Shown here: in pieces, positions 2,956 to 37,865 of the stretch | How positions within the stretch are numbered: the first letter of the stretch is position 1 | Layout of the letters: every line of letters starts with the position of its first letter | Source of the DNA: Desulfobacterium sp. | GTDB lineage: Bacteria > Desulfobacterota > Desulfobacteria > Desulfobacterales > SURF-7 | Reading direction: 5' to 3' | Length of the DNA: 37,865 bases | NCBI GenBank assembly: GCA_013824585.1 | Contig: PNOB01000002.1 | Span: 1-37,865 of the forward strand | The notes under the pieces: generated by a model | The model's input: only the letters and a program-made list of their open reading frames with translations | Told to the model about the DNA's origin: nothing | Databases searched by the model: none | Program-made: the position numbers and the translations under genes

Positions 2956-3010
2956 ACGTAAATCTTTCACAATGAATATTGTGACACTATCCCGGACAGG
3001 AAGTCAATAC

Positions 3011-3766
3011 ATGAAATCGAAACAAAAAATGGAAAATAGCCATTCCTTTTCAGATGGTAAACTGCTTCAGTTGATGACGATTTCTCTTTTTATCATTTTG
3101 CTTGTTTTTTTTATTCTGCTGAATTCAATCGCTGTTAGAAATGAAAAAAAAGTGGTTGCTGCCATTGGATCACTTCTCGGGAGTTTTGGTCAAAAAACCG
3201 GTGGATATTCGGATATTGACGGAACCGGTGAAAAAAATCTGATCCTCTCCATAAACACCTACACCGGAGGAATTGACTTCTCCGACATCCTTGTTAACGA
3301 CCCAATGCTTTCGCAACAAATAAAAATTCTTTCTGCCCCGGGAGGCAGTCTTGTCCGGATATCGGCAGACACCTTGTTTACCAATTTTGAAACAACCATC
3401 AACCCTTCCGGGTATCGGTTCCTGGATCGGATCATCAGGGCGATACAGAATAATAATTATCCAGTCGAGATTTCAAGCCATACCGATAACATTCCGATCA
3501 TCAGAAACGAAGAAAAATCAAATCAGGAAGTCTCTGCCATGCGTGCACTCCATATTTTTCAATATGTAACGGAAACCAAAAACATTTCAATTGATCGAAT
3601 CACTGCTTTTGGCTGGGGAGAATACCAGCCCGCTTATTCGAATCGAACACTGGAAACCAGAAAATTGAACAACAGGATCGATATCCTTTTTGTTCACAAA
3701 CCAAAGAAGCAAAAGCCAAAAAGCGGATTTATTTTTAAAGATTTCTTTTTTCGGTCATTTGAGTAA
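3011..3766 (+). CDS. MotB-like stator/OmpA-domain paralog lacking the canonical channel Asp
   Basis: 251 aa from ATG 3011 (GGAAG upstream). The track ORF starts at GTG 2942, overlapping the motA stop, so the start is uncertain. One TM (LLQLMTISLFIILLVFFILL) where Gln sits at the position of the MotB Asp. OmpA-like C-terminus: EISSHTDN...SNQEVSAMRALH...NNRIDILF. Confidence 0.7.
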   Translation: MKSKQKMENSHSFSDGKLLQLMTISLFIILLVFFILLNSIAVRNEKKVVAAIGSLLGSFGQKTGGYSDIDGTGEKNLILSINTYTGGIDFSDILVNDPMLSQQIKILSAPGGSLVRISADTLFTNFETTINPSGYRFLDRIIRAIQNNNYPVEISSHTDNIPIIRNEEKSNQEVSAMRALHIFQYVTETKNISIDRITAFGWGEYQPAYSNRTLETRKLNNRIDILFVHKPKKQKPKSGFIFKDFFFRSFE

Positions 3767-3781
3767 GGAAACACAATAATC

Positions 3782-4528
3782 ATGCCATCATCGAAAACAC
3801 CAAAAAGAATTGACTCTCCAAAAATAAATTCGGATTTATGGATGCTCACCTTTGGTGACCTGGTTATGCTTCTCCTTACCTTTTTTGTTTTGCTTTTGAG
3901 CATGAAATCCATGGACAAAAAAGATCTGAGAGAATTATTTCCAAATCCTTCTCTCTGGGGCGGTCCCCTGAAATATTCGGAAAACGGGTTAACCGGAAAT
4001 ACCACGGATTTTTATGGTGACAATAAAAGCTCAATTTTGGTGGAAAACAAAGATGCCCTGAAACAAATCTTTACGATGATGAAAGAGATTCAAACATCTC
4101 TTCCGGAAAAAGATGTGGTTAATCGTTTTGAAAAATCGATCCTCATTGAGGATGATCCCAAAGGAGTCGTGATATCATTCCAGACAGAACAATTATTCGA
4201 ACCGGGTGAAGCGACCATCAACCCATCCAAAATCGATTTCCTTACTGCTGCAGGAGAATTGTTGAAGAAGACATCAAACAACATTCTGATAATGGGACAT
4301 GCAAGCAGCATTCAACCTCAAAAAGCTGCATTGAAATCAAGTTGGGATCTCTCCCTCTATCGGGCACTGCACGTTCTGTATTATTTAACCGCAAACTTTG
4401 AAATGTTGGAAAATAGACTCGCCGTGGGAGGATTTGGAGATAAAAAACCCAAATTTCCTGTTACGGAAGTAGAGAACCAAAAAACAAATGATCGGATTGA
4501 ATTTATTCTCATGAAAGCAACAGAATGA
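3782..4528 (+). CDS. motB: Flagellar stator protein MotB
   Basis: 248 aa. Canonical WMLTFGDLVMLLLTFFVLLL TM motif with the conserved Asp. OmpA-like C-terminus (SWDLSLYRALHV...NDRIEFIL), but GHASS where OmpA-like domains usually have GHTD. AAGGAA Shine-Dalgarno upstream. Confidence 0.85.
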   Translation: MPSSKTPKRIDSPKINSDLWMLTFGDLVMLLLTFFVLLLSMKSMDKKDLRELFPNPSLWGGPLKYSENGLTGNTTDFYGDNKSSILVENKDALKQIFTMMKEIQTSLPEKDVVNRFEKSILIEDDPKGVVISFQTEQLFEPGEATINPSKIDFLTAAGELLKKTSNNILIMGHASSIQPQKAALKSSWDLSLYRALHVLYYLTANFEMLENRLAVGGFGDKKPKFPVTEVENQKTNDRIEFILMKATE

Positions 4529-12225: not shown

Positions 12226-13306
12226 AAAATATCAAACAAAAAGTATCCAGGAAGGGGTCAGTAAAATCAAAAAAGAACTGGGCCCGGATGCGATGATATT
12301 GTCTACAAAATGTATTCGAAAAAACACCGTTGATCCTTACGGAAATGATCGATTTGAAATTACCGCGATTCCAGGTCAGTCTGCGGAGGAAAGTTATCCA
12401 AAAAATACAAAAACCATCCGTGAGGAAATTGCAAGCATAAAAGAAGTGCTGTTTCTGCTTGCTCAGCCAAATGGTCTCCCTGAAGCATTTCAAATCTGCC
12501 CGGACAGTTTCAAGATATATTCCAGCCTAATCCGATCCGGAATCTCTGAGAAACGGGTCAACCATTTTTTCCACAAAGTGTTCCAAAATCCGGCCAATCA
12601 AAATCCGGAGAATGTTGAAATTGCCAAACAGATTTACAAATCTGTTTTTGATTCCATTACAGTATCCAACCCATTTCAAACAAATGATGATCCAAAACCT
12701 TCCGGAACGCCAAAATTTGCCGTTCTTATCGGTCCGACCGGTGTTGGTAAAACCACTACCATTGCCAAACTCGCTGCCGATCTTTGTTTACAACAAAGAA
12801 AAAAGGTTGGACTCATTTCTGTTGATAATTATCGGATTGGTGCGGTTGAACAACTGAAAACTTACGCATCCATCATCGGGATTCCCTGTCTGACTGCATT
12901 TTCCAGAGAAGATATAACGGCTGCAATTCACAAACTCAAAACCAGGGATTTTGTTCTGGTGGATACAGCAGGGCATAGCCATCTGGATAAGGAAAGAATG
13001 GCCGAACTTGTCTCTCTTCTTGGTGAAAAATTTTCAGGCTCCTGCCATCTGGTTTTAAGTGCAACAACCAAACAACCGGATATGAAAGATGCTGTTAAAT
13101 ACTTTTCCAGCTTGAACCCGCAAACATACATATTTACAAAAATCGATGAAACCAGACAGCGGGGTGGAATCCTTGACCAGGTTCTTGATTATGCGCTTCC
13201 GATCTCCTTTGTGACAACCGGCCAGAAAGTACCGGAAGACATTATCGTTGCAACAAAAAGAAATATTTCCAGGCTGATATTAAACCGCAGCCGGTATTTA
13301 TCTTAG
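12215..13306 (+). CDS. flhF: Flagellar SRP-type GTPase FlhF
   Basis: 363 aa with an 11-nt overlap with flhA. N-terminus MVVRKYQTKSIQEGVSKIKKELGPDAMILS. G1 motif GPTGVGKTTTIAKLA; DTAGHS; TKIDET. Confidence 0.92.
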   Translation: MVVRKYQTKSIQEGVSKIKKELGPDAMILSTKCIRKNTVDPYGNDRFEITAIPGQSAEESYPKNTKTIREEIASIKEVLFLLAQPNGLPEAFQICPDSFKIYSSLIRSGISEKRVNHFFHKVFQNPANQNPENVEIAKQIYKSVFDSITVSNPFQTNDDPKPSGTPKFAVLIGPTGVGKTTTIAKLAADLCLQQRKKVGLISVDNYRIGAVEQLKTYASIIGIPCLTAFSREDITAAIHKLKTRDFVLVDTAGHSHLDKERMAELVSLLGEKFSGSCHLVLSATTKQPDMKDAVKYFSSLNPQTYIFTKIDETRQRGGILDQVLDYALPISFVTTGQKVPEDIIVATKRNISRLILNRSRYLS

Positions 13307-15094: not shown

Positions 15095-17005
15095 ATGGCT
15101 GAAACCAAAAATCAACAAGTTGAGTCAGACTCTATCTCAGAGAATGATATTGACCAATTACTCCAATCGTATAGCAGCCAAGAAACAGAAGGAAAGGAGG
15201 AAATCGACAGCTTACTGAGAAATATTTCCCGTGAAGAGAGCGCCATTAATCAGGATGATGCGGAAGAGAATAACAATCTGATCGATGAAATATCTCCAAG
15301 TGATATCCGTAATCTTTTAAATATATCTCTTGACGATATTTCCGTGGATGATCTGGAAGCGGAATTGCTTCAAGCCCAAAACCCGCGTGATTCTGATGAT
15401 TCTCTTTTTGAAGATCAAAAATCCAATACCCATCTTTTTGAAAAAAATTCACAGATTTTTGCCGTAGAAAAGGATCAAGATGAAGCAAAACCTGAACCTG
15501 CAAACGAATCCAATGACACTGGTATAATTTCCCAGGACGATATTGAAAAACTCCTGACCGGTGAAATATCTGTCGATTCAAAATCAACAGAAATCAAATC
15601 AAAACCTGAAACCGAATCCAATGACTCAGGCGTAATTTCCCAGGACGATATTGAAAAACTCCTGACCGGTGAAATATCTGTCGATTCAAAATCAACAGAA
15701 ATCAAATCAAAACCTGAAACCGAATCCAATGACTCAGGCGTAATTTCCCAGGACGATATTGAAAAACTCCTGGCCGGTGAAATCGGCGCTGATGATTCAA
15801 TTCCCATTGAAAATAAAATTCAAGGCTCTGATGAACAGCCTCAAGAAGAGGAGCGATCTCTTTTCATTTCTCAGAATGAACTGAACCTGCTTTTGGAGGA
15901 ATATGACAATAAAACTTCGAATACAAATGCGAAAACAGAAAAAGAAATCATGGCTTCATTGCCTGAAGAATCAGGGATAGAGGATCCAAATAATTTTGTT
16001 TCACAGAGTGACCTTGATATGCTTTTAGCTGAAGATTCCGATAAGAAGAATGAGGATATTGCAGATCCTGACGAAGGACTCATTTCCCAGGAAGACATTG
16101 ATAAGCTGTTACAAGGCAAGGATGACAATCCGGAAGAAGTGGAAGATGACACATCCAGCCTGATTTCACAACAAGACATCGATACCCTGTTAAAAGGAGC
16201 CGCTGAAAATGATTCTTCAGATGAACTGGCTGAAACAGGGCCGGTAGATAAAGACGATAATGAATCCGGACTTGTCTCTCAGGAAGATATTGATTCGCTT
16301 TTGCGGGATGCAACCGATCAGGACGATGAAGAAAATCATACCGAACCCCAGATTGAGCTTGACCGGGTTGTCTTAGAGGAAGCCGATGATTCAAAAATTA
16401 TTCCGGATGAACCTCCCCCACCGGAAGTCAAAACAACTGAAAGAAAAAAATGGTATCGATCCAGACTTGTTATCGCCTGTTCTGCCGGGGCAATCGTTTT
16501 GCTGATTTCTTCTGTTGCACTCTATTTCTTTTTATCCAGCGATCATGCAGGAACAGGGAAGCCGGAAATCGCATCCATTGAGTCTGAATCAAAAAAAACA
16601 GATCCGGCTGTGGAAGAAGCCATCCCGTCCGGTCTATCGATTGATTTTAATGGATTTGTTGTTCTTGATCCGCGCAACAGAGGTGATATTGCTTACCTTA
16701 AGGCAGATATCCAGATTAACTGTAACAGCAATGCTACCGTAAATACAATTGCCTCTCGAAAACCATTTTTCCGATTCTTGATCTATGACATTTTTCAAAA
16801 AAACCTGGAAAAACTGGAGTTGCCTGAAAAAGAAAAAAATCCTCCTTCTGAAAAGAAAAAGGAGGATTCATCCCAATCGGAAAATCACAATGTCCCTTTG
16901 CTTGATAAAACAAAATTACAAATTGCGATTCGGCAGTCTTTGGAAAATGCATTATCGGAAAAAGGCATAAAGGAGATTATTCTGAAAAATATCGATCTGT
17001 TTTAA
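15095..17005 (+). CDS. Acidic multi-EIDAL-motif protein with one TM and a C-terminal FliL-like domain
   Basis: 636 aa. About 11-12 copies of [ILV]SQx[DE][IL][DN]x[LM]L lie in the first ~440 aa. Then RKKWYRSR plus a TM (LVIACSAGAIVLLISSVALYFFL, about nt 16466-16537). The C-terminal ~150 aa align by eye with the FliL encoded at 4625 (FVVLDPRNRGDIAYLKADIQIN vs FVVNLNDPGGKQYLHITIELE; IKEIILKNIDLF vs IRNLYFTEFVIQ). Confidence 0.8.
   Translation: MAETKNQQVESDSISENDIDQLLQSYSSQETEGKEEIDSLLRNISREESAINQDDAEENNNLIDEISPSDIRNLLNISLDDISVDDLEAELLQAQNPRDSDDSLFEDQKSNTHLFEKNSQIFAVEKDQDEAKPEPANESNDTGIISQDDIEKLLTGEISVDSKSTEIKSKPETESNDSGVISQDDIEKLLTGEISVDSKSTEIKSKPETESNDSGVISQDDIEKLLAGEIGADDSIPIENKIQGSDEQPQEEERSLFISQNELNLLLEEYDNKTSNTNAKTEKEIMASLPEESGIEDPNNFVSQSDLDMLLAEDSDKKNEDIADPDEGLISQEDIDKLLQGKDDNPEEVEDDTSSLISQQDIDTLLKGAAENDSSDELAETGPVDKDDNESGLVSQEDIDSLLRDATDQDDEENHTEPQIELDRVVLEEADDSKIIPDEPPPPEVKTTERKKWYRSRLVIACSAGAIVLLISSVALYFFLSSDHAGTGKPEIASIESESKKTDPAVEEAIPSGLSIDFNGFVVLDPRNRGDIAYLKADIQINCNSNATVNTIASRKPFFRFLIYDIFQKNLEKLELPEKEKNPPSEKKKEDSSQSENHNVPLLDKTKLQIAIRQSLENALSEKGIKEIILKNIDLF
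15506..15800 (+). repeat. 108-bp in-frame tandem repeat, about 2.6 copies
   Basis: Copies start at 15506, 15614 and 15722 (GAATCCAATGAC...). Copies 1 and 2 are identical apart from about 5 nt near the start. Copy 3 is identical to copy 2 for about 55 nt and then diverges. Each encodes ESND(T/S)G(I/V)ISQDDIEKLLTGEISVDSKSTEIKSKPET. Confidence 0.9.
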
Positions 17006-23898: not shown

Positions 23899-24315
23899 AT
23901 GGAAATTCAATCACACAAAAACAATACATCCGTAACCAAAACAGACAATCCTTCGGAAAACACCAAATTGAAACAGGCTTGTGCGGATTTTGAAGCGATC
24001 CTTCTGGATTCCATGTTTCAGTCCATGAGGAAAACCCTTTCCGGGGATGATATTTTTGGAAAAAGTCTGGGCCGGGATATCTATGAATCCATGTATTACA
24101 CTCAAATCTCAAAAGAACTTGCCACAGAAGGCAATGGTCTTGGTTTGGAACAAATTCTGTATCAGCAGTTGAGCAGCCGCATGGGAAAGAAACCGGATCA
24201 TGGCTCTATCCCCGGATTAAGTCGAAACGATCCACTTCAGAAATACGGAAAAACCTCCGATAAAGGTATAGGTGCATTAAAAAAGGAGATTCGCAATGGA
24301 GACTTCAATCAATGA
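23899..24315 (+). CDS. flgJ: Rod-binding protein (FlgJ N-terminal domain only, no muramidase domain)
   Basis: 138 aa. KQACADFEAILLDSMFQSMRKT...GRDIYESMYYTQISKELA matches the rod-binding domain pattern. Sits after flgI. Confidence 0.75.
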   Translation: MEIQSHKNNTSVTKTDNPSENTKLKQACADFEAILLDSMFQSMRKTLSGDDIFGKSLGRDIYESMYYTQISKELATEGNGLGLEQILYQQLSSRMGKKPDHGSIPGLSRNDPLQKYGKTSDKGIGALKKEIRNGDFNQ

Positions 24316-24796
24316 TATTGAAACCTTATTTTATCAAAAAATAGAAACCTATGAACAACTGGTTGATCTTTTTACCCAGGAAAGAAAGAGCCTGGAAAGT
24401 GCAGATATTGAAGCCATGTGGAGATATTCCGACCAGAAGCAAAAAATTTCAAACCGAATTGTTGAAATCCGTATGTGCATCCTTACTATTCTGAACAAAT
24501 TCGGTATTCTTCATGACATGAATGCAACCACGTTTCACACACCAAAAATAATCTCCCTGGTGCCTAAAAAACAAGGGCGAAACCTTCAGAAAATCTATGT
24601 CTCCCTGATTACGATAAAAAATAAAGTTCGGGCTCTGTCTGAAGAAAACAAAAAATTCGTGGAAGACTACCTGGGGATACTGGATGAACTTATTGGAATC
24701 ATAACCAATGCTGGAAAACCCAAACCCGTGTATGACAGTATGCGCAACTGCAATGCCGGGAAAAAAACCAATCTGTTGCTGCACAAAGAGGTATAG
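24296..24796 (+). CDS. FlgN-like export chaperone (putative, for FlgK/FlgL)
   Basis: 166 aa helical protein (IETLFYQKIETYEQLVDLFTQERKSLESADIEAMWRYSDQKQKISNRI...). Overlaps flgJ by 20 nt and sits directly upstream of flgK. The assignment rests mainly on position and general pattern. Confidence 0.45.
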   Translation: METSINDIETLFYQKIETYEQLVDLFTQERKSLESADIEAMWRYSDQKQKISNRIVEIRMCILTILNKFGILHDMNATTFHTPKIISLVPKKQGRNLQKIYVSLITIKNKVRALSEENKKFVEDYLGILDELIGIITNAGKPKPVYDSMRNCNAGKKTNLLLHKEV

Positions 24797-24798
24797 CC

Positions 24799-27700
24799 AT
24801 GTCAGGCTTGTCATCCGTACTCAATACGGCAAAGCTTGCATTGAACGCACAGCAGCTTGGCCTGGCTGTTGCCGGCCATAATATTGCCAATGTCAATACT
24901 ACTGCTTACAGCCGTCAGAATATTGAATTTTCAGCTACCGATCCGGTGAAATTTGGTGGACAGCTTCTGGGCAGCGGTGTTCAAATTGAAACCATTCAGA
25001 GAATAAACAACAGATTCATTGAAGAGCGTCTCATTAATTTGAAATCAGACCTGGCTGCAAATGAAGAAAGCGCTGCCTATATTCAAATCCTGGAAAGCAA
25101 TTTCAGTGAAAATTCCGAAACCAGTATCAGCCATATCATCTCTGAATTCTGGAACTCATGGCACGATTTGTCAAACAACCCTATTGGAGCTTCAGAGCGT
25201 AAACTGGTTTATGAAACCGGTGTACTGGCAGCGGATCGGATTAACACGTTACATGAAGATCTGACACAAATGGAAATCGATTTAAGCCGAGAAGTATCAA
25301 GCGCTCTTCCGGAAATAAACCGGTTATCCGCTGATCTTGCAGCGCTGAATTCCGATATTGTCGAAAGTGAAGCAGTCGATACGGCAAACGACTTGAGGGA
25401 CCGGAGAAATTCCCTGGTAACCGATTTGTCCAAACTCATCGGGATCAAAACATTTGAACAACCCAATGGATCACTGGTTATTACAACCGGGACCGGGTAT
25501 ACACTCGTAAATGGTATTGATTCCTTTGATCTGACATCATCAGAGGGTGAAATACAATATGAGACTCCCTATGGAGGAACCATTGCCATCACCGATCAAA
25601 TTACCGGAGGGTCCATCGGAGGCTGGCTTACGATACAAAAGGAAGTGATTCCGAAATTTCAAACAGAACTGGATGTCATGGCACACGAATTGATCTGGGC
25701 CGTCAACCTGCAGCACAGCCAGGGTGTCGGAGAGGAATATTTTGCAATGCCGGTTACCGGTACATATGCAACCGATGATAGCGGTCTTTTATCCACCCTG
25801 AGCTTTGGCAACAAGATTGATTATTCCAAAAACTTTGAGATGTGGATTAAGGACAGCAGCGCTTTGACACCCACTTACACCAATCTGGAGGTCGATATGG
25901 GAATATCGACAGCGTCGATCTCCAACTGGACAGGTGTAAATCCAGATCAAGACAGTGTTACCTATGACTTCACGGTTACCAGCAGCGGCACTGTAAATGC
26001 GGATGCAAACTTTGCCATTACTGACGGTCCTGGAATAGGTGTCATTCAAACAGGGACGAATGTAGGAACAGCGCTGAATGGGGCGATCGCAGCCCAGACC
26101 CTTACTATTTCCAATGCCAGCGGAAACCAGACAATCCAAATCGCTGACGGAGGTGATGCCGAGCGCTCCGCAGCCTCCATTGCCGAAGCTTTGACGAATC
26201 TTACCGGCATAAACGCAACTGCTGGAAAAAACACAGCAACCATCGATATCACCAATATCCTTCCTCCTGCTGCCACAAGTGCACATGAACACGATACTGT
26301 CCGTTTTACACTTTACACCGGAAACGATTCCGAGGTTGTTTCGTTCGAGGTTGGTGCGACTGCTGACACCACACGAAACAACTTTCTGAGTGCACTGAAC
26401 ACCTCAATACTGGCTTTAAACAGTGCGACCTCGGATCTTTCCATCGACTCCAGCCGGCTGATGTCCGATAATGTCATTATGTTTACCAGTGACAGCGGCG
26501 ATAACATCGGAATTGAAAATTTTAACGTTCTGGATCTGCCTATTGCAACACTGGATAACTTTCAGAACCTTGGGGTGAATACGGTCATTGCCGCAAGCAA
26601 TTTCACGAATCTATCCAATGGTGAAACCCTGACCTTTTCAATTACAACCGCGCAGGGCAGTGTAAACGTCAGCTATGTCATTACCGATGATACGAATCAG
26701 ACAACCCTTGCCGCTGATTTACAGGCTGCGCTTGCCGGGGCAGGTCTTGGCGCAATCGGGGTAGCGAGTCTTCAGGTTGGCGCCACCGTTCAGATCACCG
26801 GAAATGCCTCTGCCGGGTTTGTCGACTTTCAAGCCATTTCCACAGGATCGGGAACAGACGAATCATTCGACATCACCCCGGCAGCAGGCACAAGCAGATA
26901 TCCATCTCTGGGCGACAACACCCTCCTGTTTAATGGAACCGGTGATCGGTCACAATATGCAGGAAATAATGCTGTAAACATGACCATCAACGGTACAGAC
27001 AACATCACGATCGATCTCAGGCGGGTGGATACCACCAGTCAAAGTGAAGTGGCTAAGGCTTTTTATCGGGGTCTGGATACTCATGTGACCAATGCGGTTG
27101 TTACAAATACGGGAACGGCAGTAACCATAAGGTCTCTTGCCGAATCTGCTTCTGACTTTGCTTTTACTGCCGGAACGGAAACATCCGGAGTGAATGGATC
27201 TTTTGATATCTCAGTACCCAATGCACTGCCGCTTGCCGCAGACACCTTTACACTTGATGGTGCGGATACAGCTACATTTACAAGTGTTACGGAAACCGAT
27301 ACCATTATTTTTGATGGAGCGGTATTAACCGAGAGTGGTGGTGTTGGAGTGGACAGCGCTGTAAAAACCGGATTGGTGACCATCAATCTGGAGGATGGCT
27401 ACTCCATTCGATCCAGCGTAGCAGGTGCGGCCGGTGGATTGTTCAATATGGCAGCCGGAATTGATATAACCACTTCCGATGCGATTATAACTCTCGGAGG
27501 AGATGGAGGTTTTGAAAACTTCAATTCGGGCGATCTGATTGCCTTTCGTCTGGATGGAAATTATGTCAGTTTTCTTGTCGGAGCAACCTCGGATACGGAT
27601 ACGGAATTTGCCACCATTCTGGAAGGAGGGTTGATTGCAGCCGGATTGCCGGCCAGTATTTATTCCATCGTACGAACAGGATCAAGCGTAAGCATTTTAA

Positions 27701-29298
27701 AATCGGATGGTACTCCTATTGAAATCACGGAGTTCAATGATGATCGAAGCGGAGGCGGTTCCTTTGCCCATCTTGCTGTTTCTTCGGGTCAGGTCCTCAG
27801 CAGTGAGAATCGGTCTGCAACATCGAGCATGATCGGCCCCGGAGGCGTAATCACATGGCAAAAATTTGATTCTACCGGTTCCTACACCGGAACCAATGGT
27901 ACGATTGAAATTGGTGATGCAGGAACCTATCTGGTTGAAGGCGCCATAACTTTTGACATTGCAGCCGGAACACTTGTTGCTGGCAATACATTTTCATTGA
28001 ACACCGATACAGATGGAACCCCTGAACCTTTGCAGCTCCGATTATCCGGACAGGCAAACAGCATCCTGGATACCTACAAATTCGAAGTCGTGGAAAATGG
28101 TGCCGGTCAAATCGGTTCAGACGATGTGGAAATACAATGGTCAAACAGTGTTACATACGGATCGTTTATACTTGAAGGAAGTACTCCGGCCTTTACACCG
28201 GTAATCGCTAAAGTTGACGGAATGACCATAAAATTTGACGCAGGTACCCTGTTTGATGGAGATACCTTTACCATTGCTACGGATAGAAACGGGGCTCCAA
28301 CAGCGGAATTGCCCTTAAACTACCACTGGACAATCGATTCTTTTGCCGATCAGTTCAATCGTCAGGCCACGGGTATTGAAGCAACCGTAACCGAAACCCA
28401 TAAACTCATATTTGCCCAGGAATCAGATGGATTTCAATTGGAGAATTTCAGGTACACGGGTTCCGATGGGTTCAGTCCGGAGAACCTTTCCGTAACCGTA
28501 AACAACTATGACGTTCTAAATGAGGGCTGGACAGGGATGGAAATCATACGGGATGACCAGACCTATTTTTCCTCCAACGGATGGGGATTATCAAATCTAA
28601 ACAATCCGGGATATACGGTTTCTTTGGTCCCGATTGACGGATTTGACATGGATAATGGATTTTTTGTCAACCTGGATGGTGTTCGAGCCCTTACCGTAAC
28701 CTTTGACCTGCCGATATCGGACAACGGTTCTTTCACATTCGATATTGCTGAGGCAGATGGGGAATACAGCTTTGCCTTTTCCGACAGCGATGCGGAGGAT
28801 TCCGGGTTGATGGCTGCACTGGGTATCAACACCTTTTTTACAGGCGACGATGCCATGACCATCCAGGCAAATGATCTGGTTTCCAATGCCCGATATCTTG
28901 CAGCATCTGTAATTGATCCTGAAAACGGTACGATTCACATCGGTAATAATGAAAATGCGCTCGCCATTGCGGATCTTCAATATGCCTCTACCGATATGGT
29001 AAACTGGGAATTTCAACTTGGCGAAGACGCAACTTCTCAGGTTCTGACAACAACTATTGAAGATTTCTATCATGTCATGGTGGGTTCTCTGGGTTTAAAG
29101 ACACAGAGCATTGAGCGATCACTCGCTTACAGCGAGACAATGGTCAGTAAAATAGGGGAACTTAGGGATGCCATTTCCGCTGTTTCCCTGGATGAAGAGA
29201 TGATCAAAATGATTCAATTTCAACATGCCTATTCCGTTGCAGCAAAACTGTTTTCCATTACCGACGAGATGATGAACTCATTGATCAATTCTTATTAA
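24799..29298 (+). CDS. flgK: Giant flagellar hook-associated protein 1 (FlgK)
   Basis: 1499 aa. N-terminus MSGLSSVLNTAKLALNAQQLGLAVAGHNIANVNTTAYSRQ; C-terminus SLDEEMIKMIQFQHAYSVAAKLFSITDEMMNSLI. About 1000 aa of Thr/Ser/Gly/Asn/Asp-rich, Cys-free sequence lies between the conserved ends. Confidence 0.9.
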   Translation: MSGLSSVLNTAKLALNAQQLGLAVAGHNIANVNTTAYSRQNIEFSATDPVKFGGQLLGSGVQIETIQRINNRFIEERLINLKSDLAANEESAAYIQILESNFSENSETSISHIISEFWNSWHDLSNNPIGASERKLVYETGVLAADRINTLHEDLTQMEIDLSREVSSALPEINRLSADLAALNSDIVESEAVDTANDLRDRRNSLVTDLSKLIGIKTFEQPNGSLVITTGTGYTLVNGIDSFDLTSSEGEIQYETPYGGTIAITDQITGGSIGGWLTIQKEVIPKFQTELDVMAHELIWAVNLQHSQGVGEEYFAMPVTGTYATDDSGLLSTLSFGNKIDYSKNFEMWIKDSSALTPTYTNLEVDMGISTASISNWTGVNPDQDSVTYDFTVTSSGTVNADANFAITDGPGIGVIQTGTNVGTALNGAIAAQTLTISNASGNQTIQIADGGDAERSAASIAEALTNLTGINATAGKNTATIDITNILPPAATSAHEHDTVRFTLYTGNDSEVVSFEVGATADTTRNNFLSALNTSILALNSATSDLSIDSSRLMSDNVIMFTSDSGDNIGIENFNVLDLPIATLDNFQNLGVNTVIAASNFTNLSNGETLTFSITTAQGSVNVSYVITDDTNQTTLAADLQAALAGAGLGAIGVASLQVGATVQITGNASAGFVDFQAISTGSGTDESFDITPAAGTSRYPSLGDNTLLFNGTGDRSQYAGNNAVNMTINGTDNITIDLRRVDTTSQSEVAKAFYRGLDTHVTNAVVTNTGTAVTIRSLAESASDFAFTAGTETSGVNGSFDISVPNALPLAADTFTLDGADTATFTSVTETDTIIFDGAVLTESGGVGVDSAVKTGLVTINLEDGYSIRSSVAGAAGGLFNMAAGIDITTSDAIITLGGDGGFENFNSGDLIAFRLDGNYVSFLVGATSDTDTEFATILEGGLIAAGLPASIYSIVRTGSSVSILKSDGTPIEITEFNDDRSGGGSFAHLAVSSGQVLSSENRSATSSMIGPGGVITWQKFDSTGSYTGTNGTIEIGDAGTYLVEGAITFDIAAGTLVAGNTFSLNTDTDGTPEPLQLRLSGQANSILDTYKFEVVENGAGQIGSDDVEIQWSNSVTYGSFILEGSTPAFTPVIAKVDGMTIKFDAGTLFDGDTFTIATDRNGAPTAELPLNYHWTIDSFADQFNRQATGIEATVTETHKLIFAQESDGFQLENFRYTGSDGFSPENLSVTVNNYDVLNEGWTGMEIIRDDQTYFSSNGWGLSNLNNPGYTVSLVPIDGFDMDNGFFVNLDGVRALTVTFDLPISDNGSFTFDIAEADGEYSFAFSDSDAEDSGLMAALGINTFFTGDDAMTIQANDLVSNARYLAASVIDPENGTIHIGNNENALAIADLQYASTDMVNWEFQLGEDATSQVLTTTIEDFYHVMVGSLGLKTQSIERSLAYSETMVSKIGELRDAISAVSLDEEMIKMIQFQHAYSVAAKLFSITDEMMNSLINSY

Positions 29299-29351
29299 GT
29301 AGACACTTCCAAAACGATTTGGGGTCGTCAAAAAGAAAGGTCATCAGCAAT

Positions 29352-32300
29352 ATGAGGGTACCCAATATTACACTATACAATACCATGAAGCTTCGATTGG
29401 GAGATCTGACGGAGCAACTGAAAATTATCAATGAAGTCGTCACGACCGGCAAACAGATCAACAGGCTTTCGGATGACCCCATTGGTCTTGCCCAGGTTCT
29501 TGATCTTAAATCTTCCCTAAGCAACATCGGTCAACTGGAAAAAAATATCGATGTAGGTAAAACCTGGCTTACAGGCGGAGAATCGGCACTTTCAAGCGTG
29601 AATGAACAGATCCTCTATGTGAAAAAAATGGGGCTGCAACTGGTCAATGCATCCGCCAACACCGCACAGAGAAAGGATGCTGTGGAAATTGTAGACGGCG
29701 TTCTGCGCCAATTGGTGACCCTTGCGAACACCAAGGTGAACGGAAGCTCTATATTCTCCGGTATTGAAACCGATATATCTCCGTTTTATTTTGACGATGA
29801 AGACAATCCCACAAAAGTTCTTTATCAGGGAAATGAAATTCCATTTGAAATCAAATCGGATTCCACTGCCAATCTCGCGGTCGGAAGAAATGGTGCGGCT
29901 GTTTTCTGGGAGGATTATCTGAATGTTAATGAAACCAACAACCGAATCGACTTTATTGAAAAAGACCGCTATGGCCAAAACAATTATAAAATCGGTATGG
30001 TTGACGCCGGAGGAACCCTGTCCGCCTCAGACATCAGTATTACAGTGAATCGACCTGATTCATTACAGTTTGCTACCCCATTTCCGGAAGGAACAAAGCC
30101 TTTGCAGTTTAGGTGGAATGGAAACGGAAGCTGGGACGTAATCAACAACACAGATTACGACCTGCCGGCAACCATCCCCGGGTCCAGCAGCAGTCTGGAA
30201 CTGGATCTGAACGATGACGGAATTACGGATGTCACGGTCAGTCTGGCAACTCCGGCTTCGACGTCCGGAGATTATGTGGAGTTTGATATCGTACCTGATG
30301 AAAGAATACTCACAGCCATTATTCCGGATGGAAAGTACACCCCCGAAGGACTTGCGGATATTGCCGAAAGCGCCATGAGCCAGGCATCTTCTGAATACGG
30401 GTTTGATGTCACCTACAGAATAAATTATGATTCATCAACCAGACAATACACCATTCAGGAAGATGGCGCAGCTTCCGGATACTATGGGTTGGAGCTGTTA
30501 TGGGAACCTCAAAACGCACAGGGTATTCCTAAAGTCAGAGGCATCAACAGCGGTAAGGGTATCGCCCTCGGAGATGTGAATATCACGGTATTGAACAGTG
30601 ATGCCCTGCTTCATTCAACACCCTATCCTCCCGGAACCGAACCGCTAAGACTGACCTGGAATGGAAACAATGCCTGGTCGGTTTCCGGTGACCCGGGCTA
30701 TTCACTTCCGGCCAGCTTATCCGGTACAGCAGACAGGATCGAATTTGACATGGCCGGTAATTCTGAAACCGATATCTCTATCCAACTGGCCAACCCTGCG
30801 CCAGCAGCGGGTGCTTACATTGAATTTGACATTATCGCAGATATCGGGAAAAACAGTATTGGTCCGGATATGGGGTTTACATCCATTCAGAGCTACTCGC
30901 CGATAACCAGTGATACGGCTTTCAATTCCATCAACAACATCACGATCGACCATACCAACAACCGGATCAATTTTCAGGAGGTGGATCTCTATCTTGGTGC
31001 AGGTTCCGAACTCAGAGCCACCATTCCGGACGGTGATTACTCCGACCCGGATGCCCTTGCCACTGCCATTGAAACCGCTATGGAAACGGAGTCTTCCGAC
31101 TATGGATACAATTTCGATTATACTGTTTCCTATGACGCGGAAACCAGCCGATTTATTTTCAAGTCCGATGAATCCCGTCTGGAAGAACTCCGGCTCCTCT
31201 GGAACAGCGGTGTCAATTCAGACATCAGCGCTGCATCGATTCTTGGATTTGACAATACGGACGATATTTCCGGCAGCGTTGGCGGCAATCTGACTGCAAA
31301 CGGCTGGAATACAGGAGATACCATCAGCATCACATTTGCCAGCGGAGAAGATACATCAACCTTTACCCGAACCATACTGGCCGGGGATACAACCACCAGC
31401 CTGCTGACCCTCATTGAAGCGCAGCTCACAACCGATCTCGGTACAAACGGCAGCTTTGCGGTAAATGGAAATAATATCAACTTTACGATGAACAACAGCA
31501 GTCTGAGCATTACCTCCATCACCGATGACAATGGATCAGGCTCCGGGAACAGCGCAACCGTAGCGGTGTCCGGAAACACCGGAACCACACTGCGGCCTTC
31601 CGGAACCACTTCTCTTACGGTTGGAGACACGGTACGATTTTTTGCTCCCCATGATGATATTATCACGTTTCCAATGAGTGATGTTTACCTGCGGCCCATC
31701 ACAATCAACAATTCCAATAACACAATCGATTTTATGGAGGACACGGGTGCAGGAACCATTGGCCCTCTCGCGGCAATTATTCCATCCGGAAACTACACGG
31801 AATATGAACTCGCCGCAGCAATTGAAACCGCCATGGAAACAGTTTCCGCAGCCCTGGGCAATACCATCAACTATGATGTGTCCTACAATGGATCAAGATA
31901 TACCATTCAGGAAGACACGGGAGCACCTGCATTGAATGAACTTTACCTGCTCTGGAATACCGGTCCGAATTCATCCACAAGTGCTGCAGGCACCCTGGGA
32001 TATGACAACTCCGGCAATACAACCGGCAGTTTCGGCGGAGACCTGATGACCCTGAACTGGGATGCCGGGGATACCATTGGAATTTCATTCTCAACCACAG
32101 GCAGCTCATTGAACTACTCTCATCTGGTTGCTGCAGGAGATACGACAACATCCATTCTGACCGATCTCCGGGAACAATTGGCCAGCACATTTGGCTCAGA
32201 AGGCACCTTTACCCTGAACGGAAGCAACATAGAGTTCACCATGCAGAATGAAACCCTTCAAATAAGCGGGATGACGGATAACAACGGCTCCGGAAGCGGC

Positions 32301-33530
32301 AACAATGCCCAAATGGCCGTTTCCGGAAGCGGCGGAAGCACAATCATGCCCACACCAGGTGCAACCATAACCATTGGTGATACCGCCATCTTCTATGCAC
32401 AGGATGATGATGTAACTCCGCTGACAACCTCCTTTTCCAGCGATAATGATGTTGTGCTCTTCACCATGGATAACACAAACAATACCATTGATTTCGAAGA
32501 ATTCAATTCATCCGGCATCTCCATGGGTCAGCTTCATGCCACCATTGCAAACGGAAATTATACCAGCATTTCGTCCTTTGCTACGGCTGTGGAGACCGCC
32601 CTCGAAACCGCGTCTTCCGCATCCGGTCATGGAATTGATTACCGTGTGAGTTTTGACATCGTAGACAGGCGCTTTCTCTTTCAGGAAAATGGAACAGAGC
32701 TGAATGAGCTGTCCCTGCTGTGGAACAGCGGAGACAATGCAAGAACAAGCGCAGCTGCTGTTATGGGGTTTGATACAACTGCTGATGACCAGATGGTTTT
32801 TCCCGGAAGCGACAGCGAGGTTGTCCGGATCACCATCGATGAAACAAACAACCATATCGATTTCAAGGAGCTGATCGACGGCCATGAAGCAGAGGATGCC
32901 GAAGAGCTGAACGCAATCATTGAAAGCGGCGACTATACAAGCACCGCTGCCCTGGCTTCGGCCATTGAGACGGCTATGGAAAGCGAATCCGCGGCTTCCG
33001 GACACGGAATCGATTATGATGTGACCTATGATTCAGCCACGAAACGGTTTACAATCAAGGAAAGCAATGCTACCCTGGATGAACTTCAGATTCTCTGGAA
33101 TTCCGGAACCAATACATCCATTAACGCGGCAGAAACCTTTGGTTTCACATCAGATGATGATATGGCAAGACCCATCAAAAGCGCACAGGAGGCTGAATGG
33201 GGAATTTTCAAAACCCTGATCGATCTGAAAAACTATTTACTTGCAGATGATGTGGATGGTATTACACGATCCATATCCCGTCTGGATACCGATTATGAGT
33301 ATATAAAATCAACCATCACTGACACGGGAATCAAATTCAACCGGCTTACGATAAAAGAAAACATCATGGACGATATCGATCTCAGCCTTACGGAAAGACG
33401 GACCAATCTGGAAGAAGCCGATATTGTTGAGGCCATAATGAAACTGAAGTCCCAGCAGTTTGCTTATCAGGCAGCGCTTCAATCCACTGCCCAGATACTG
33501 CAGCTCAGTCTCATGGATTACCTGAAATAA
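29352..33530 (+). CDS. flgL: Giant flagellar hook-associated protein 3 (FlgL) with modular internal repeats
   Basis: About 1392 aa from ATG 29352 (MRVPNITLYNTMKLRLGDLTEQL...GKQINRLSDDPIG); the track ORF starts at TTG 29319. C-terminus EEADIVEAIMKLKSQQFAYQAALQSTAQILQLSLMDYL is flagellin-like. The interior holds 5 + 2 + 2 copies of three module types. Confidence 0.88.
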   Translation: MRVPNITLYNTMKLRLGDLTEQLKIINEVVTTGKQINRLSDDPIGLAQVLDLKSSLSNIGQLEKNIDVGKTWLTGGESALSSVNEQILYVKKMGLQLVNASANTAQRKDAVEIVDGVLRQLVTLANTKVNGSSIFSGIETDISPFYFDDEDNPTKVLYQGNEIPFEIKSDSTANLAVGRNGAAVFWEDYLNVNETNNRIDFIEKDRYGQNNYKIGMVDAGGTLSASDISITVNRPDSLQFATPFPEGTKPLQFRWNGNGSWDVINNTDYDLPATIPGSSSSLELDLNDDGITDVTVSLATPASTSGDYVEFDIVPDERILTAIIPDGKYTPEGLADIAESAMSQASSEYGFDVTYRINYDSSTRQYTIQEDGAASGYYGLELLWEPQNAQGIPKVRGINSGKGIALGDVNITVLNSDALLHSTPYPPGTEPLRLTWNGNNAWSVSGDPGYSLPASLSGTADRIEFDMAGNSETDISIQLANPAPAAGAYIEFDIIADIGKNSIGPDMGFTSIQSYSPITSDTAFNSINNITIDHTNNRINFQEVDLYLGAGSELRATIPDGDYSDPDALATAIETAMETESSDYGYNFDYTVSYDAETSRFIFKSDESRLEELRLLWNSGVNSDISAASILGFDNTDDISGSVGGNLTANGWNTGDTISITFASGEDTSTFTRTILAGDTTTSLLTLIEAQLTTDLGTNGSFAVNGNNINFTMNNSSLSITSITDDNGSGSGNSATVAVSGNTGTTLRPSGTTSLTVGDTVRFFAPHDDIITFPMSDVYLRPITINNSNNTIDFMEDTGAGTIGPLAAIIPSGNYTEYELAAAIETAMETVSAALGNTINYDVSYNGSRYTIQEDTGAPALNELYLLWNTGPNSSTSAAGTLGYDNSGNTTGSFGGDLMTLNWDAGDTIGISFSTTGSSLNYSHLVAAGDTTTSILTDLREQLASTFGSEGTFTLNGSNIEFTMQNETLQISGMTDNNGSGSGNNAQMAVSGSGGSTIMPTPGATITIGDTAIFYAQDDDVTPLTTSFSSDNDVVLFTMDNTNNTIDFEEFNSSGISMGQLHATIANGNYTSISSFATAVETALETASSASGHGIDYRVSFDIVDRRFLFQENGTELNELSLLWNSGDNARTSAAAVMGFDTTADDQMVFPGSDSEVVRITIDETNNHIDFKELIDGHEAEDAEELNAIIESGDYTSTAALASAIETAMESESAASGHGIDYDVTYDSATKRFTIKESNATLDELQILWNSGTNTSINAAETFGFTSDDDMARPIKSAQEAEWGIFKTLIDLKNYLLADDVDGITRSISRLDTDYEYIKSTITDTGIKFNRLTIKENIMDDIDLSLTERRTNLEEADIVEAIMKLKSQQFAYQAALQSTAQILQLSLMDYLK

Positions 33531-33566: not shown

Positions 33567-33809
33567 ATGCTTGTTTTGACAAGGAAGATCGGGGAGAGAA
33601 TCAAAATCGGTGAGGAAATCACCATCCGCATTTTGGAAGTCAGTAAAGGAACCGTTCGAATCGGAATCGAAGCTCCCCAGGATGTGAAAATCTATCGTTA
33701 TGAAATTTATGAAAAAATCCTGGAGGAAAACCTGAAAGCCTCCATGGGTGCATTTTCCGATATCGAAGAGGCAGCAAGTTTGTGGCGTCAAAAAGAAGAT
33801 AAGGAGTAG
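33567..33809 (+). CDS. csrA: Carbon storage regulator CsrA
   Basis: 80 aa: [51 protein letters not shown]. Confidence 0.95.
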
Positions 33810-33813
33810 ACCC

Positions 33814-34284
33814 TTGAAATTCAATACCAGAAAGTTTGGTGAAATCGATATACCGGATGATAAAATCATTGCAATGCCTCTGGGTCTTCCCGGATTTCAG
33901 GGAAAAAATCGATTTGTGCTTCTGGAGAGGAAGGAAACAAGACCGTTCTGCTGGTACCAGAGTGTGGATGATCCGAACCTGGCCCTGGTGATCATGAATC
34001 CTTTTTTATTCAATGCAGACTATTCCGTGGATATCGAACCTGCACTCAAGGAGATGGCATGGAAGGGGGACGCTCTTGAAAAAATGGCGGTCTATGTTGT
34101 TTTAACCTTTCATGATGAAGGGCCATACAGGATTACGGCCAACCTGATCGGACCGATTATCATCAATACTCTAAAATGCGAGGCTGTCCAGTTGGTTATC
34201 CATGACTCTCCATACTCTCACCAGCACCCGGTTATGGAGCATCAAAAGGTGACCTCTCATCCTGAAAATGCCGTTGGACGGTAA
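33814..34284 (+). CDS. fliW: Flagellar assembly factor FliW (CsrA antagonist)
   Basis: 156 aa from TTG 33814 (AAGGAG 7 nt upstream, just after the csrA stop). (M)KFNTRKFGEIDIPDDKIIAMPLGLPGFQGKNRFVLLE fits the FliW N-terminus. The track ATG at 33748 would overlap csrA by 62 nt. Confidence 0.85.
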   Translation: MKFNTRKFGEIDIPDDKIIAMPLGLPGFQGKNRFVLLERKETRPFCWYQSVDDPNLALVIMNPFLFNADYSVDIEPALKEMAWKGDALEKMAVYVVLTFHDEGPYRITANLIGPIIINTLKCEAVQLVIHDSPYSHQHPVMEHQKVTSHPENAVGR

Positions 34285-34316: not shown

Positions 34317-35753
34317 TTATACGGCTTTCAACAAATGGGACAGGATACCGGGAACCCTGGATGTAGATCCGTTCATTTTTGCCTGAACAAACGCAACCAC
34401 CGCCATTACCCGGTTCCTTGGAATAAAATTGATCGGATTGACCTTCATGAGATGAAACATGGCCTCGGCAGTGGAGCAGAGGTCATTGCATTCCCCGCTG
34501 AGATACACATTTTTTCTCCCGAGCCTCTGGATCAGACGATCCGATACCTCTTCAATGGCGCAGTGCCCGGCAATCAGGACCTTGCCTTTTATGACGTCAA
34601 TCTCTTTTGGATCAAACCCCTTTCCCAACACAAGCGTCCAGCCTGTTTTTCCCTGATGATCATTGTACAGCACCTGAAGCAATGTCATGGGGTTGTTCAC
34701 ACATCCTTCCCTGCAGGCCATTTCACTGCCTTTGATGATCGTCACATCATCCGGAAACGAATCATACAGATCGGTTGAATATGCCCCGGATTCCGGAATA
34801 TCCCCGATCAGATCCATTCCATTGAGACTGGGAATGTCTCCTGTCAGATGAATATCACCAAGATCCTGAACCCCTCCGCCATAACCCCTCTCAATGGCCA
34901 GTTTCAGATGCGGCACATCTTTTTTTTCAAGACCGAACATTCTGGCTCCCACAAGGTCGGCAGCCACAACATTTCCGCTTGCGATCAGGACACGAAACGG
35001 CTTGACGCAGGCATCCGCCAGCGTAGTCGCAGGATAATGACCGTGAATCGTACCCTCTACACCCTCTATCAGCGTAACATCTGGTTTTACATAAGATAGA
35101 ACATCTACCAGTTTATAATGAAGATTATGATTGTGATCGATTCCCCGGCTTTTATGGACTGGAAATCCCCACTGGCCTTTTATTCCCAATGTAACCCCGG
35201 ACATGGAATGGGTTTTCAGTTTCGGCAGACTGACATACAGATTCTCCTCTCCTCTATCGATCAGCTTTTCAACCACCGTAACCGGCATTTCAACCTGTTT
35301 CAGATCGTATCCAACGCCTGTGAAGCCGGCAGCACCCTCTTTTCCCTGGAATGCAAAGCTTTTTGTCTTTTCTTCATCCAGATAGATGGGAATGGCGCCG
35401 GTTTCACGGCAGACCTTCCGATATCCATTCACCTCGAACACCACCCGGGTATAATTGGCCTGTGTGGAATTTTCCAGAAGAAACACACGATTGGCCCCTT
35501 GGTCAAACCAGTACTCAATTACCGCTCTGACCACCTCCGGCCGCGTATAGCAATAGGGTTTGGCATCAATACCATTGGGTTTGACATACACATCCTTGCT
35601 GGATTTGATCAGGGTTTTTCCACCCAGCTCATTAAAGATATCGGTTACCCGGTCTTTCACCTCCAGCGCCAGTTCTGGGTACAGCGGCATGAATTTCGTA
35701 AAGCTTTCCGACTGGTGAGGCGCTTGCAGCTTTCGAATGATAACAGTATTCAT
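34317..35753 (-). CDS. DUF362-like domain protein
   Basis: 478 aa, convergent with fliW. DVYVKPNGIDAKPYCYTRPEVVRAVIEY and SLPKLKTHSMSGVTLGIKGQWGF resemble the DUF362 pattern; this is recalled from memory, not searched. AGGAGA Shine-Dalgarno upstream. Confidence 0.55.
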   Translation of the reverse strand: MNTVIIRKLQAPHQSESFTKFMPLYPELALEVKDRVTDIFNELGGKTLIKSSKDVYVKPNGIDAKPYCYTRPEVVRAVIEYWFDQGANRVFLLENSTQANYTRVVFEVNGYRKVCRETGAIPIYLDEEKTKSFAFQGKEGAAGFTGVGYDLKQVEMPVTVVEKLIDRGEENLYVSLPKLKTHSMSGVTLGIKGQWGFPVHKSRGIDHNHNLHYKLVDVLSYVKPDVTLIEGVEGTIHGHYPATTLADACVKPFRVLIASGNVVAADLVGARMFGLEKKDVPHLKLAIERGYGGGVQDLGDIHLTGDIPSLNGMDLIGDIPESGAYSTDLYDSFPDDVTIIKGSEMACREGCVNNPMTLLQVLYNDHQGKTGWTLVLGKGFDPKEIDVIKGKVLIAGHCAIEEVSDRLIQRLGRKNVYLSGECNDLCSTAEAMFHLMKVNPINFIPRNRVMAVVAFVQAKMNGSTSRVPGILSHLLKAV

Positions 35754-36685: not shown

Positions 36686-37865
36686 TTAACAGTCTTTATT
36701 TCCCGGATAGTCGGAAGGGGAAAATGATAAAGGCATAATAAATCCAAAAGGATCTTGAATTGTTATTCCGTGGCCAATCAGATTCGAAATCAAGCTTAAA
36801 CAAAGACATGGATTGTATGATATGTTCATATAGCCGCTCACATGTCGCAATGCATCAAGGTCCAAGCTGGTTAATGAATTGTTGTACGATATCTCCAGTC
36901 GATAAACACTCTCAATATTAAGATGGAGGCTGGTTAAACTGGAATTATTAGTTATATTAATAGAACTACCGATTGTCAGACTATCCATTGATATAGCAGT
37001 CAGATTGTTATTATTCGCAATTCCAACACTGCTTGCAGTAACAAGATTATTCAGTCCTGCCAAGGTCGTAAGGCTATTATTTTCAGTGATAGTCAACTCT
37101 GTACCGACAGAAGTTAAATTACCTATGGATGAGATGCTGGTAAGAGATTCATTGTTTGCGATTTTACACCACAATGTCGTCGATCTCAAATTTTCCAATC
37201 CATGAAGATTGATCAACAATGGATTGTTTTCAATTTGAAGCGAAGCAAGTGTTTCAATGTGGTTAAGGCCGTAAATACTATTCAAAGACTGATTGTCCTG
37301 TATCCTTAGTTGGAGTTGTGGAATTATCGTTGATAAATTGGCAAGTGCTGCAATATTGGTTAAATTAGGGTTGCCCAATACTGTCAAGTTAGGAGCCCCA
37401 GTCCAAGGATCATAATCCTTATAATTTATCGTTGTTAGCCCATTGAGACCGTTTAATGATATCAGTTCAATATTATTATAAATATGCAGCCCATATGCAA
37501 TATCTGTCACGCTTTCCAATCCATGGAGATTTGTCAGGTTTGTATTCTGGACAGTTAGTGAACCATTCACAACTTTCAGGTTTAATGTTTCAGAAGAATC
37601 CGTTAATTGGGACAACTGATAATCTTGAATGGTTAGATCCCCATCGATCTCTGTGTATTCTGCCAAAGCATCTACATCCCCTGCATCATTGATTACATAA
37701 TCACCTGGCCTGACAAGACCTTGCACCTCACCCGGTATCGGTGATGCAAGAAAATCAACGAGTACAGGATCACCGGTTTCATCTACGTTCTGTGGTGTGT
37801 ATGTCCATCCGCCGATTGAAGGGGTAATTGTATATGTCATTGTATTGGAAGGAAGCTTATAAAAT
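36686..37865 (-). CDS. Leucine-rich-repeat (BspA/receptor-L-domain-like) protein, N-terminus possibly outside the window
   Basis: The track ORF is 36686..37840 (384 aa). The frame stays open for the 8 codons upstream to the window edge, and no Shine-Dalgarno precedes ATG 37840. More than 10 repeats of ~22-24 aa fit L.I..N..L..L.GL..L..I (e.g. LQIENNPLLINLHGLENL, LTITENNSLTTLAGLNNL, INITNNSSLTSLHLNIESV). Confidence 0.7.
   Translation of the reverse strand, partial: FYKLPSNTMTYTITPSIGGWTYTPQNVDETGDPVLVDFLASPIPGEVQGLVRPGDYVINDAGDVDALAEYTEIDGDLTIQDYQLSQLTDSSETLNLKVVNGSLTVQNTNLTNLHGLESVTDIAYGLHIYNNIELISLNGLNGLTTINYKDYDPWTGAPNLTVLGNPNLTNIAALANLSTIIPQLQLRIQDNQSLNSIYGLNHIETLASLQIENNPLLINLHGLENLRSTTLWCKIANNESLTSISSIGNLTSVGTELTITENNSLTTLAGLNNLVTASSVGIANNNNLTAISMDSLTIGSSINITNNSSLTSLHLNIESVYRLEISYNNSLTSLDLDALRHVSGYMNISYNPCLCLSLISNLIGHGITIQDPFGFIMPLSFSPSDYPGNKDC

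Follow-up and report, generated by a model that had tools for sequence, protein, structure and literature searches.

A giant FlgL carrying a nested array of nine predicted domains in a Desulfobacterales flagellar gene cluster

The stretch of DNA analysed here (the window; 37,865 nucleotides (nt) of contig PNOB01000002.1, assembly GCA_013824585.1, Desulfobacterium sp.) carries a flagellar gene cluster, and this cluster includes a gene for an unusually large FlgL, the hook-filament junction protein HAP3. The open reading frame (ORF) of flgL is uninterrupted from the ATG at 29352 to the stop codon at 33528-33530 on the forward strand, and encodes a product of 1392 amino acids (aa). A TTG at 29319 lengthens the mechanical ORF upstream; every orthologue opens with MRVPN or MRVAN, and therefore the ATG at 29352 was taken as the start. 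Pfam models identified Flagellin_N (PF00669) at aa 9-140 and Flagellin_C (PF00700) at aa 1312-1391, with no above-threshold Pfam match between them. The NCBIfam FlgL equivalog TIGR02550 gave a whole-protein score of 176.3 bits over two terminal stretches (cutoff 127.2), whereas the cutoffs of the flagellin models were not reached (NF006469, 25.8 bits vs 627; NF009449, 22.9 bits vs 347). Because TIGR02550 is above its cutoff, the flagellin models are far below theirs and the gene order fits, we call the protein FlgL. By these scores it is a genuine FlgL of a Desulfobacterales bacterium, and its N- and C-terminal polymerising helices are conserved and conventional, so it should polymerise as FlgL does in other flagella. 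Public annotations of metagenome-assembled genomes (MAGs) already call related genes FlgL, and the closest assemblies carry the labels Desulfocicer and Desulfosudis. The identical protein was not found when it was looked up in public contigs. Cysteine is absent from both FlgL and FlgK of the window, and the region between the FlgL termini is rich in Ser, Thr, Asp and Asn, which resembles other exposed flagellar domains. A scan for sigma-70 promoters and terminators around flgL gave nothing better than shuffled sequence. A preliminary description, made from the DNA letters before any database search, had already proposed a cysteine-free FlgL of about 1392 aa with flagellin-like ends around about 1080 aa of repeats, and all of this agrees with the intact ORF, the terminal Pfam matches and the self-comparison below. 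The positions of the gene, its segments and its neighbours are collected in Table 1.

Table 1. Positions in the window of flgL, its predicted segments and the adjoining flagellar genes (AF2, AlphaFold2; pLDDT, predicted local distance difference test score)
Feature	Position (nt)	Strand	Remarks
flgN-like export chaperone gene	24296..24796	+	PF05130, E 4e-11
flgK (1499 aa), partner junction protein	24799..29298	+	
flgL, complete ORF (1392 aa + stop)	29352..33530	+	TIGR02550; Flagellin_N, Flagellin_C at ends
N-terminal conserved core (aa 1-185; D0/D1 helices and hairpin), ends ...VGRNGAAVF	29352..29906	+	colinear with module-free 301-aa P0227
B1 piece a (aa 186-204; strands, TNNRIDFIE motif)	29907..29963	+	
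Module A1 (aa 205-317), all-beta, nested in first B1 hairpin loop	29964..30302	+	missing exactly from P0003/L004
B1 piece b (aa 318-389; strand, helix, three strands)	30303..30518	+	
Module A2 (aa 390-498), nested ahead of last B1 segment; copy kept in most family members	30519..30845	+	
B1 piece c (aa 499-523, SIGPDMGF tail) and linker	30846..30920	+	
Module B2 (aa 524-638)	30921..31265	+	AF2 pLDDT 91.7
Module C1 (aa 639-775), missing from 81%-identical P0006	31266..31676	+	
Module B3 (aa 776-886)	31677..32009	+	
Module C2 (aa 887-1030)	32010..32441	+	
Module B4 (aa 1031-1146)	32442..32789	+	
Module B5 and linker (aa 1147-1277)	32790..33182	+	
C-terminal conserved core (aa 1278-1392), start ...EWGIFKTLIDLK	33183..33527	+	
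csrA	33567..33809	+	same position in L001
fliW (listed ORF)	33748..34284	+	

The repeats were mapped by comparing 80-aa windows with the whole FlgL, and then with hidden Markov models (HMMs) built from the copies and iterated on homologues. Off-diagonal self-matches had E-values from 1e-10 to 1e-27. The HMMs placed module A at aa 213-315 and 393-496, module C at aa 638-770 and 889-1021, and module B at aa 528-635, 782-886, 1035-1142 and 1158-1267 and, as a split match, at aa 188-232 plus 307-390. There were thus five B, two A and two C, which are nine domains in an array of about 1090 aa, with protein identity of 32-54% among the copies of a module. The three module types, their copy numbers and their approximate positions had all been given in the preliminary description (the example peptide quoted there corresponds to aa 558-638), and the HMM positions, put into nucleotides, agree with all of them: B from 29928, 30940, 31700, 32466 and 32835, A at about 30040-30300 and 30580-30850, and C at about 31271-31650 and 32026-32410. 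Its first B module does not stand as a contiguous unit of about 100 aa, since A1 and A2 split it, and the simple string of modules that it pictured is replaced by a nested architecture.

The discontinuous B1 consists of aa 186-204, 318-389 and 499-520, which, once spliced, align over the full length with B2-B5. In most family members pieces a and b of B1 are contiguous and A2 is the only A present. Other members carry A at still other sites within B domains (P0039-41), and P0012 carries C within a B. An AlphaFold2 model of aa 186-780 (mean pLDDT 80.9; predicted template-modelling score, pTM, 0.52) has the same order of strands and helix in B1 as in B2, broken by two all-beta blocks, A1 and A2. 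According to the spliced alignment and the predicted fold, A1 and A2 sit inside loops of B1, a domain within a domain.

The position of the array is clear from module-free relatives. In an alignment with the 301-aa FlgL P0227, from a Desulfatiglandaceae MAG of the same clade, the core is colinear, and aa 186-1277 stand in place of a 6-residue turn between VGxxGxAVF and GIFxTLIxxK of the relatives of about 300 aa. The alignment indicates that the entire array is inserted at one surface loop. Within this FlgL clade, proteins of about 290-310 aa have no modules, those of about 410-430 aa have one B and those of about 536-544 aa have two B. Three B and one A were found at 771-774 aa, five to six B and one A at 1026-1156 aa, and five B and two A at 1128-1130 aa. 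The architecture of the window FlgL is present at 1390-1394 aa, without C1 at 1268 aa and without A1 at 1287 aa, and the proteins of 1423-1809 aa have many C modules. In terms of length and module count, the window FlgL is an extreme member of a graded FlgL size series in sulfate-reducing Desulfobacterales, and module B, of which the proteins of about 420 aa carry one copy, is the outer domain usually found throughout an FlgL clade. The analyses that the preliminary description had suggested (self-comparison, profile searches with the modules, structure prediction of B and a survey of copy number) brought out the repeats, the B fold and this size series.

Close relatives differ by whole modules. 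P0003 (L004, labelled as a Desulfocicer vacuolatum MAG; 87% identical) is without exactly A1, and its sequence runs from ...RYGENNY directly to ERILTAIIP; P0006 (81% identical) is without C1, and P0007-9 are without both C modules. In the window FlgL, B2-B5 are orthologous by position to their namesakes in the 1130-aa form (69, 66, 56 and 57% identity), and therefore both C modules are cassettes added at B-B linkers. The difference in length between the two forms, 1392 - 1130 = 262 aa, is about that of two C modules.

Intact orthologues were present in three independent assemblies with 92, 91 and 87% identity: L002 (uncultured Desulfocicer sp.), L003 (labelled Desulfosudis oleivorans) and L004 (Desulfocicer vacuolatum MAG). 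The Nei-Gojobori ratio of nonsynonymous to synonymous substitution rates (dN/dS) of flgL was 0.15-0.19 overall and 0.08-0.32 per module, with the termini no different. These ratios indicate that every module is under purifying selection, and comparison of the orthologues indicates that the composition of the array shifts by whole modules among close relatives while selection conserves it. The longest DNA repeat shared by the modules is 21 nt; it is the sole shared element and encodes the TNNxIDF motif. As there is no longer DNA repeat, repeat-driven mis-assembly is not a concern.

Module B has the clearest predicted structure. The AlphaFold2 model made from an alignment of 73 non-redundant copies (pLDDT 91.7, pTM 0.85) begins with a short strand, a long hairpin and another short strand, which are followed by a helix of 18 residues and then by three more strands. 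A Foldseek search of this model against the PDB found nothing at E <= 1e-3. The one notable match was chain K of 8rbs, the EhV-201 penton (E 3.6e-3; template-modelling (TM) score 0.61; 24% identity); this chain, too, is an AlphaFold prediction that was fitted into a map (PMC11006232). Among predicted viral structures, giant-virus proteins again matched best, including a DUF5901 protein of PBCV-1, with a top E-value of 3.8e-5 and a TM score of 0.69. The giant-virus fold matches of module B (30921-31265), namely 8rbs_K and the BFVD entries A0A1V0CPH4, Q98583 and D2TFD8, had TM scores of 0.55-0.69, identities of 19-26% and a Foldseek probability of 1.0. The predicted B fold is thus nearest to small globular insertion domains of the Nucleocytoviricota penton and DUF5901 proteins, and flagella and giant viruses may share a decoration domain.

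The B profile, searched against 1.84 billion cluster representatives, matched 1622 proteins at E <= 1e-3 and 367 at E <= 1e-10. A homologous-protein search with the B alignment returned one fragment. Judged by their termini, the best 150 matches comprised about 59 FlgL-like, 10 FliD-like, 8 FlgK-like and 66 other proteins. Among 42 of the other proteins, four were tail-tube or minor tail proteins of phages, one was a hook protein (FlgE) and several were large surface proteins with immunoglobulin (Ig) or cadherin domains, and no Pfam family was common to these 42. Some of the non-flagellar proteins with B are large and have Ig, cadherin, fibronectin type III (Fn3)-associated and pectate-lyase-like adhesive domains. 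From these profile matches, module B is not peculiar to the window FlgL: FliD, FlgK and a hook protein have it too, as do tail-tube proteins of phages. It is a domain whose fold was predicted with confidence, without a Pfam entry and without a clear counterpart among solved structures, and more than 1600 protein clusters contain it.

Module A appears in the model of aa 186-780 as an all-beta domain, and module C as three strands followed by a helix and at least three more strands. Pfam searches with single modules at E up to 10 gave sub-threshold matches only (DUF3383, E 0.04; TrkA_C, E 0.008; FG-GAP_3, E 0.29), which is in line with the preliminary description, where the modules were not recognised as a named domain, and PF07196 (Flagellin_IN) was not found in the modules by Pfam. 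Sequence-profile searches of the PDB with the A, B and C alignments gave nothing below E 0.1, and B and C had no detectable kinship (hhalign probability 4%). Foldseek of the 595-aa multi-domain model returned weak matches to phage tail sheaths (outer domains of Milano, A-1(L) and PhiTE; probability 0.95-1.0, E 0.03-0.3), which are given for the model as a whole and not by module. There was no clear flagellar match in the PDB to either model; the flagellin-filament chains 6x80_A, 9n8a_A1 and 9atl_A had E > 1 and TM scores of about 0.1-0.3. Our literature search found no paper on giant modular FlgLs or on the module B domain.

The flagellar cluster in the window consists of motA/B, fliLMNOP, fliR, flhB, flhA, flhF, flhG, fliA, a fliK-like gene, flgF, flgG, flgA, flgH, flgI, flgJ, flgN, flgK, flgL, csrA and fliW. 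The local order is flgH-I-J-N-K-L-csrA-fliW, and flgN-flgK-flgL-csrA-fliW is likewise found in the relative L001 (Desulfobacula MAG). FlgK and FlgL are both giant and adjacent, with an FlgN-like gene ahead of them, as first described. In FlgK, some 1150 aa separate FlgK_D1 from the C-terminal rod motif; no strong internal repeats were found in this protein, and it carries three weak C-like stretches (aa 499-576, 604-648 and 898-1002). The window contains no flagellin gene. In L001, FlgL has 773 aa, FlgK has 1414 aa with a partial A, and the flagellins have 962 and 956 aa. The flagellin genes of L001 (13059-15947 and 16268-16819, minus strand) are separate, contain Flagellin_IN motifs, adjoin fliD and fliS, and show faint left-handed beta-helix (Hexapep/LbH) matches. 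The FliD of L001 (696 aa; 10829-12919, minus strand) has a module B at aa 347-443 (E 4e-24).

Several other features of the cluster were observed. The listed fliW ORF overlaps csrA, and the real start is probably downstream of 33748. The FlgJ-like protein (23899-24315, plus strand) has 138 aa, with the rod-binding domain and without the muramidase domain. A 636-aa ORF between fliA and the fliK-like gene (15095-17005, plus strand) belongs to no Pfam family and has a sub-threshold FliL-like stretch at aa 450-520. Two successive OmpA-domain genes follow motA, one with OmpA only (2942-3766, plus strand) and one with MotB_plug and OmpA (3782-4528, plus strand); the OmpA-only gene may encode an extra stator-associated or MotB-like protein. 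The end of the cluster is marked by a DUF362 protein (34317-35753, minus strand) and a Receptor-L/leucine-rich repeat (LRR) domain protein (36686-37840, minus strand).

Taken as a whole, the best explanation, to which we give a probability of about 60%, is that the protein is a genuine FlgL with a loop-borne array of nine domains which grew by cassettes and is displayed as a collar at the hook-filament junction. The Salmonella junction has 11 FlgK and 11 FlgL subunits (PMC12221982). By analogy with other flagella, 11 FlgL subunits would lie between FlgK and flagellin. The array is made of independently folding domains, grew by duplication and insertion of cassettes and is kept by purifying selection. 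Because the insertion point faces outwards, the 11 subunits would project about 99 domains as a collar round the junction, roughly calculated at 1.3 MDa, with a comparable mass from FlgK. Most likely, this collar would extend and buttress a thick layer of outer domains on an enlarged flagellum. In L001 a giant FlgK, flagellins of about 960 aa and a B-bearing FliD occur together, and the simplest reading would be that the outer layer of the junction keeps pace with, and buttresses, a thick outer layer along the whole extracellular flagellum. The remodelled hook-filament junction of the preliminary description is a plausible inference; the conserved polymerising termini are ordinary.

Several points weigh against this explanation. 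The nesting of A in B1 was read from sequence splicing and the order of secondary-structure elements, not from model coordinates, and in the model of aa 186-780 the individual domains are confident while their mutual arrangement is uncertain, as the pTM shows. The geometry of the collar and its mechanical role are what we infer. The link with thick filaments leans on the more distant L001, whose FlgL is much shorter than that of the window, and it is indirect because the window holds no flagellin genes of this genome.

The array might instead mainly display adhesins or ligand-binding domains, so that the collar binds surfaces, polymers, cells or other flagella. Module B also occurs in large proteins with adhesive domains and as an addition to phage tail-tube proteins, the closest folds are those of decoration domains exposed on phage sheaths and viral pentons, and module number changes fast between close relatives. 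However, 11 copies per flagellum in a cell-proximal place would be poorly positioned compared with the filament or the cap, neither a conserved pocket nor a binding motif was found, and the uniformly low dN/dS does not indicate a rapidly adapting interface. We regard this role as unlikely. A shield or decoy, in which the array would hide the conserved junction core from proteases, grazers or flagellotropic phages while the turnover of modules supplies variation, would agree with the variable presence of A1 and C1 among orthologues 81-92% identical and with the residue composition shared with other exposed flagellar domains. On the other hand, sequence evolution within the modules is conservative and, beside the filament, the junction presents a very small target, which makes it an improbable explanation.

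Two further readings concern the identity of the gene itself. Flagellin_N and Flagellin_C are both present and flagellins of more than 1000 aa are known (PMC6248924), which could suggest a giant filament-forming flagellin mislabelled as FlgL. This is contradicted by the scores (TIGR02550, 176 bits vs 127; flagellin models, 23-26 vs 347-627), by the position of the gene directly after flgN-flgK, by the separate flagellin genes of L001 and by the core, which is colinear with FlgLs of about 300 aa; it is very improbable. That the ORF is an assembly artefact or the repeats a decaying expansion without function is also practically ruled out, even if repetitive genes can be mis-assembled. The modules are at most 54% identical and have no DNA repeat above 21 nt, the same intact architecture is found in three assemblies, and dN/dS is low; the truncated or frameshifted gene that the preliminary description had considered is thus not what the orthologues show, and this reading has almost no weight left. 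The contigs of L002 and L003 both stop 2-3 kb downstream of flgL, which speaks on its side; this may be coincidence, or a hard-to-assemble region may be near.

A broader and more tentative idea, which we consider doubtful, is that B represents an unrecognised widespread superfamily of decoration cassettes. Such cassettes could be inserted and nested, and could hop among exposed loops of symmetric assemblies (FlgL, FlgK, FliD and FlgE; phage tail tubes and sheaths; giant-virus pentons). On the FlgL and FlgK of Desulfobacterales they would then have been amplified into a megadalton junction collar with a function of its own, for example bearing, bundling or attachment, which would have no counterpart in model flagella.

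Studies of flagellar diversity have centred on the outer domains of flagellin and on motor accessories, and the junction is usually seen as a small invariant adaptor. This clade shows a junction protein growing stepwise from about 300 to about 1800 aa at one loop. The natural one-module variants among close relatives are ready-made deletion experiments. It is a good system for two questions: what the outer domains of the junction do, and how insertion of a domain within a domain is compatible with flagellar type III export. Module B is worth the definition of a family and the solution of a structure.

Compared with known systems, larger-than-usual FlgLs, as in the epsilonproteobacterial models, and giant flagellins were already known, and the window does not hold a new kind of system. 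New here are how far the expansion has gone, its stepwise series, the nesting of insertions, and a domain that is widespread but uncharacterised. Burroughs et al. 2007 described a beta-grasp domain common to FliD, FlgL, FlgK and Mu-like phage tail proteins, and their alignment corresponds to the Flagellin_IN-type motif (NGV.I ... AIN..TGV.A ... L.L.S..GR.I). Like this beta-grasp, B and C are small strand-helix-strand domains with a similar order of secondary structure. Membership of A, B or C in that family was rejected, with an hhalign probability below 1% for each against 21 sequences of the published alignment. Together with the absence of a Pfam match, this result does not place the modules in a known hypervariable family of flagellins, which the preliminary description had named as the contrary case. 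The EhV penton also strings five small globular domains in one insertion; unlike FlgL, the giant-virus pentons and phage decoration domains belong to wholly different host assemblies, the E-values are modest (best 3.8e-5), and the PDB entry is an AlphaFold prediction fitted to a map.

The giant flagellins and flagellin outer domains (PMC6248924; PMC11532411) share with the window FlgL a conserved polymerising core and an outward hypervariable insert grown by tandem domain duplication. They differ in that flagellin is present in thousands of copies per filament, whereas FlgL is a junction protein with 11 copies per flagellum, and in that the window modules fit neither the Flagellin_IN motif nor any Pfam family. 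Campylobacter and Helicobacter also have large FlgLs, whose NCBIfam models (749 and 827 positions) match only the termini of the window FlgL. The FlgL of Xanthomonas campestris has an outward-exposed accessory domain D2, which its authors proposed to reinforce the junction (PMC6155364). The window FlgL has the same terminal core and gene neighbourhood, and an accessory region likewise inserted in the D1 region and directed outwards; however, D2 is a single beta-sandwich, whereas the array described here comprises nine domains, of which two are nested; they belong to three other types and span about 1090 aa.

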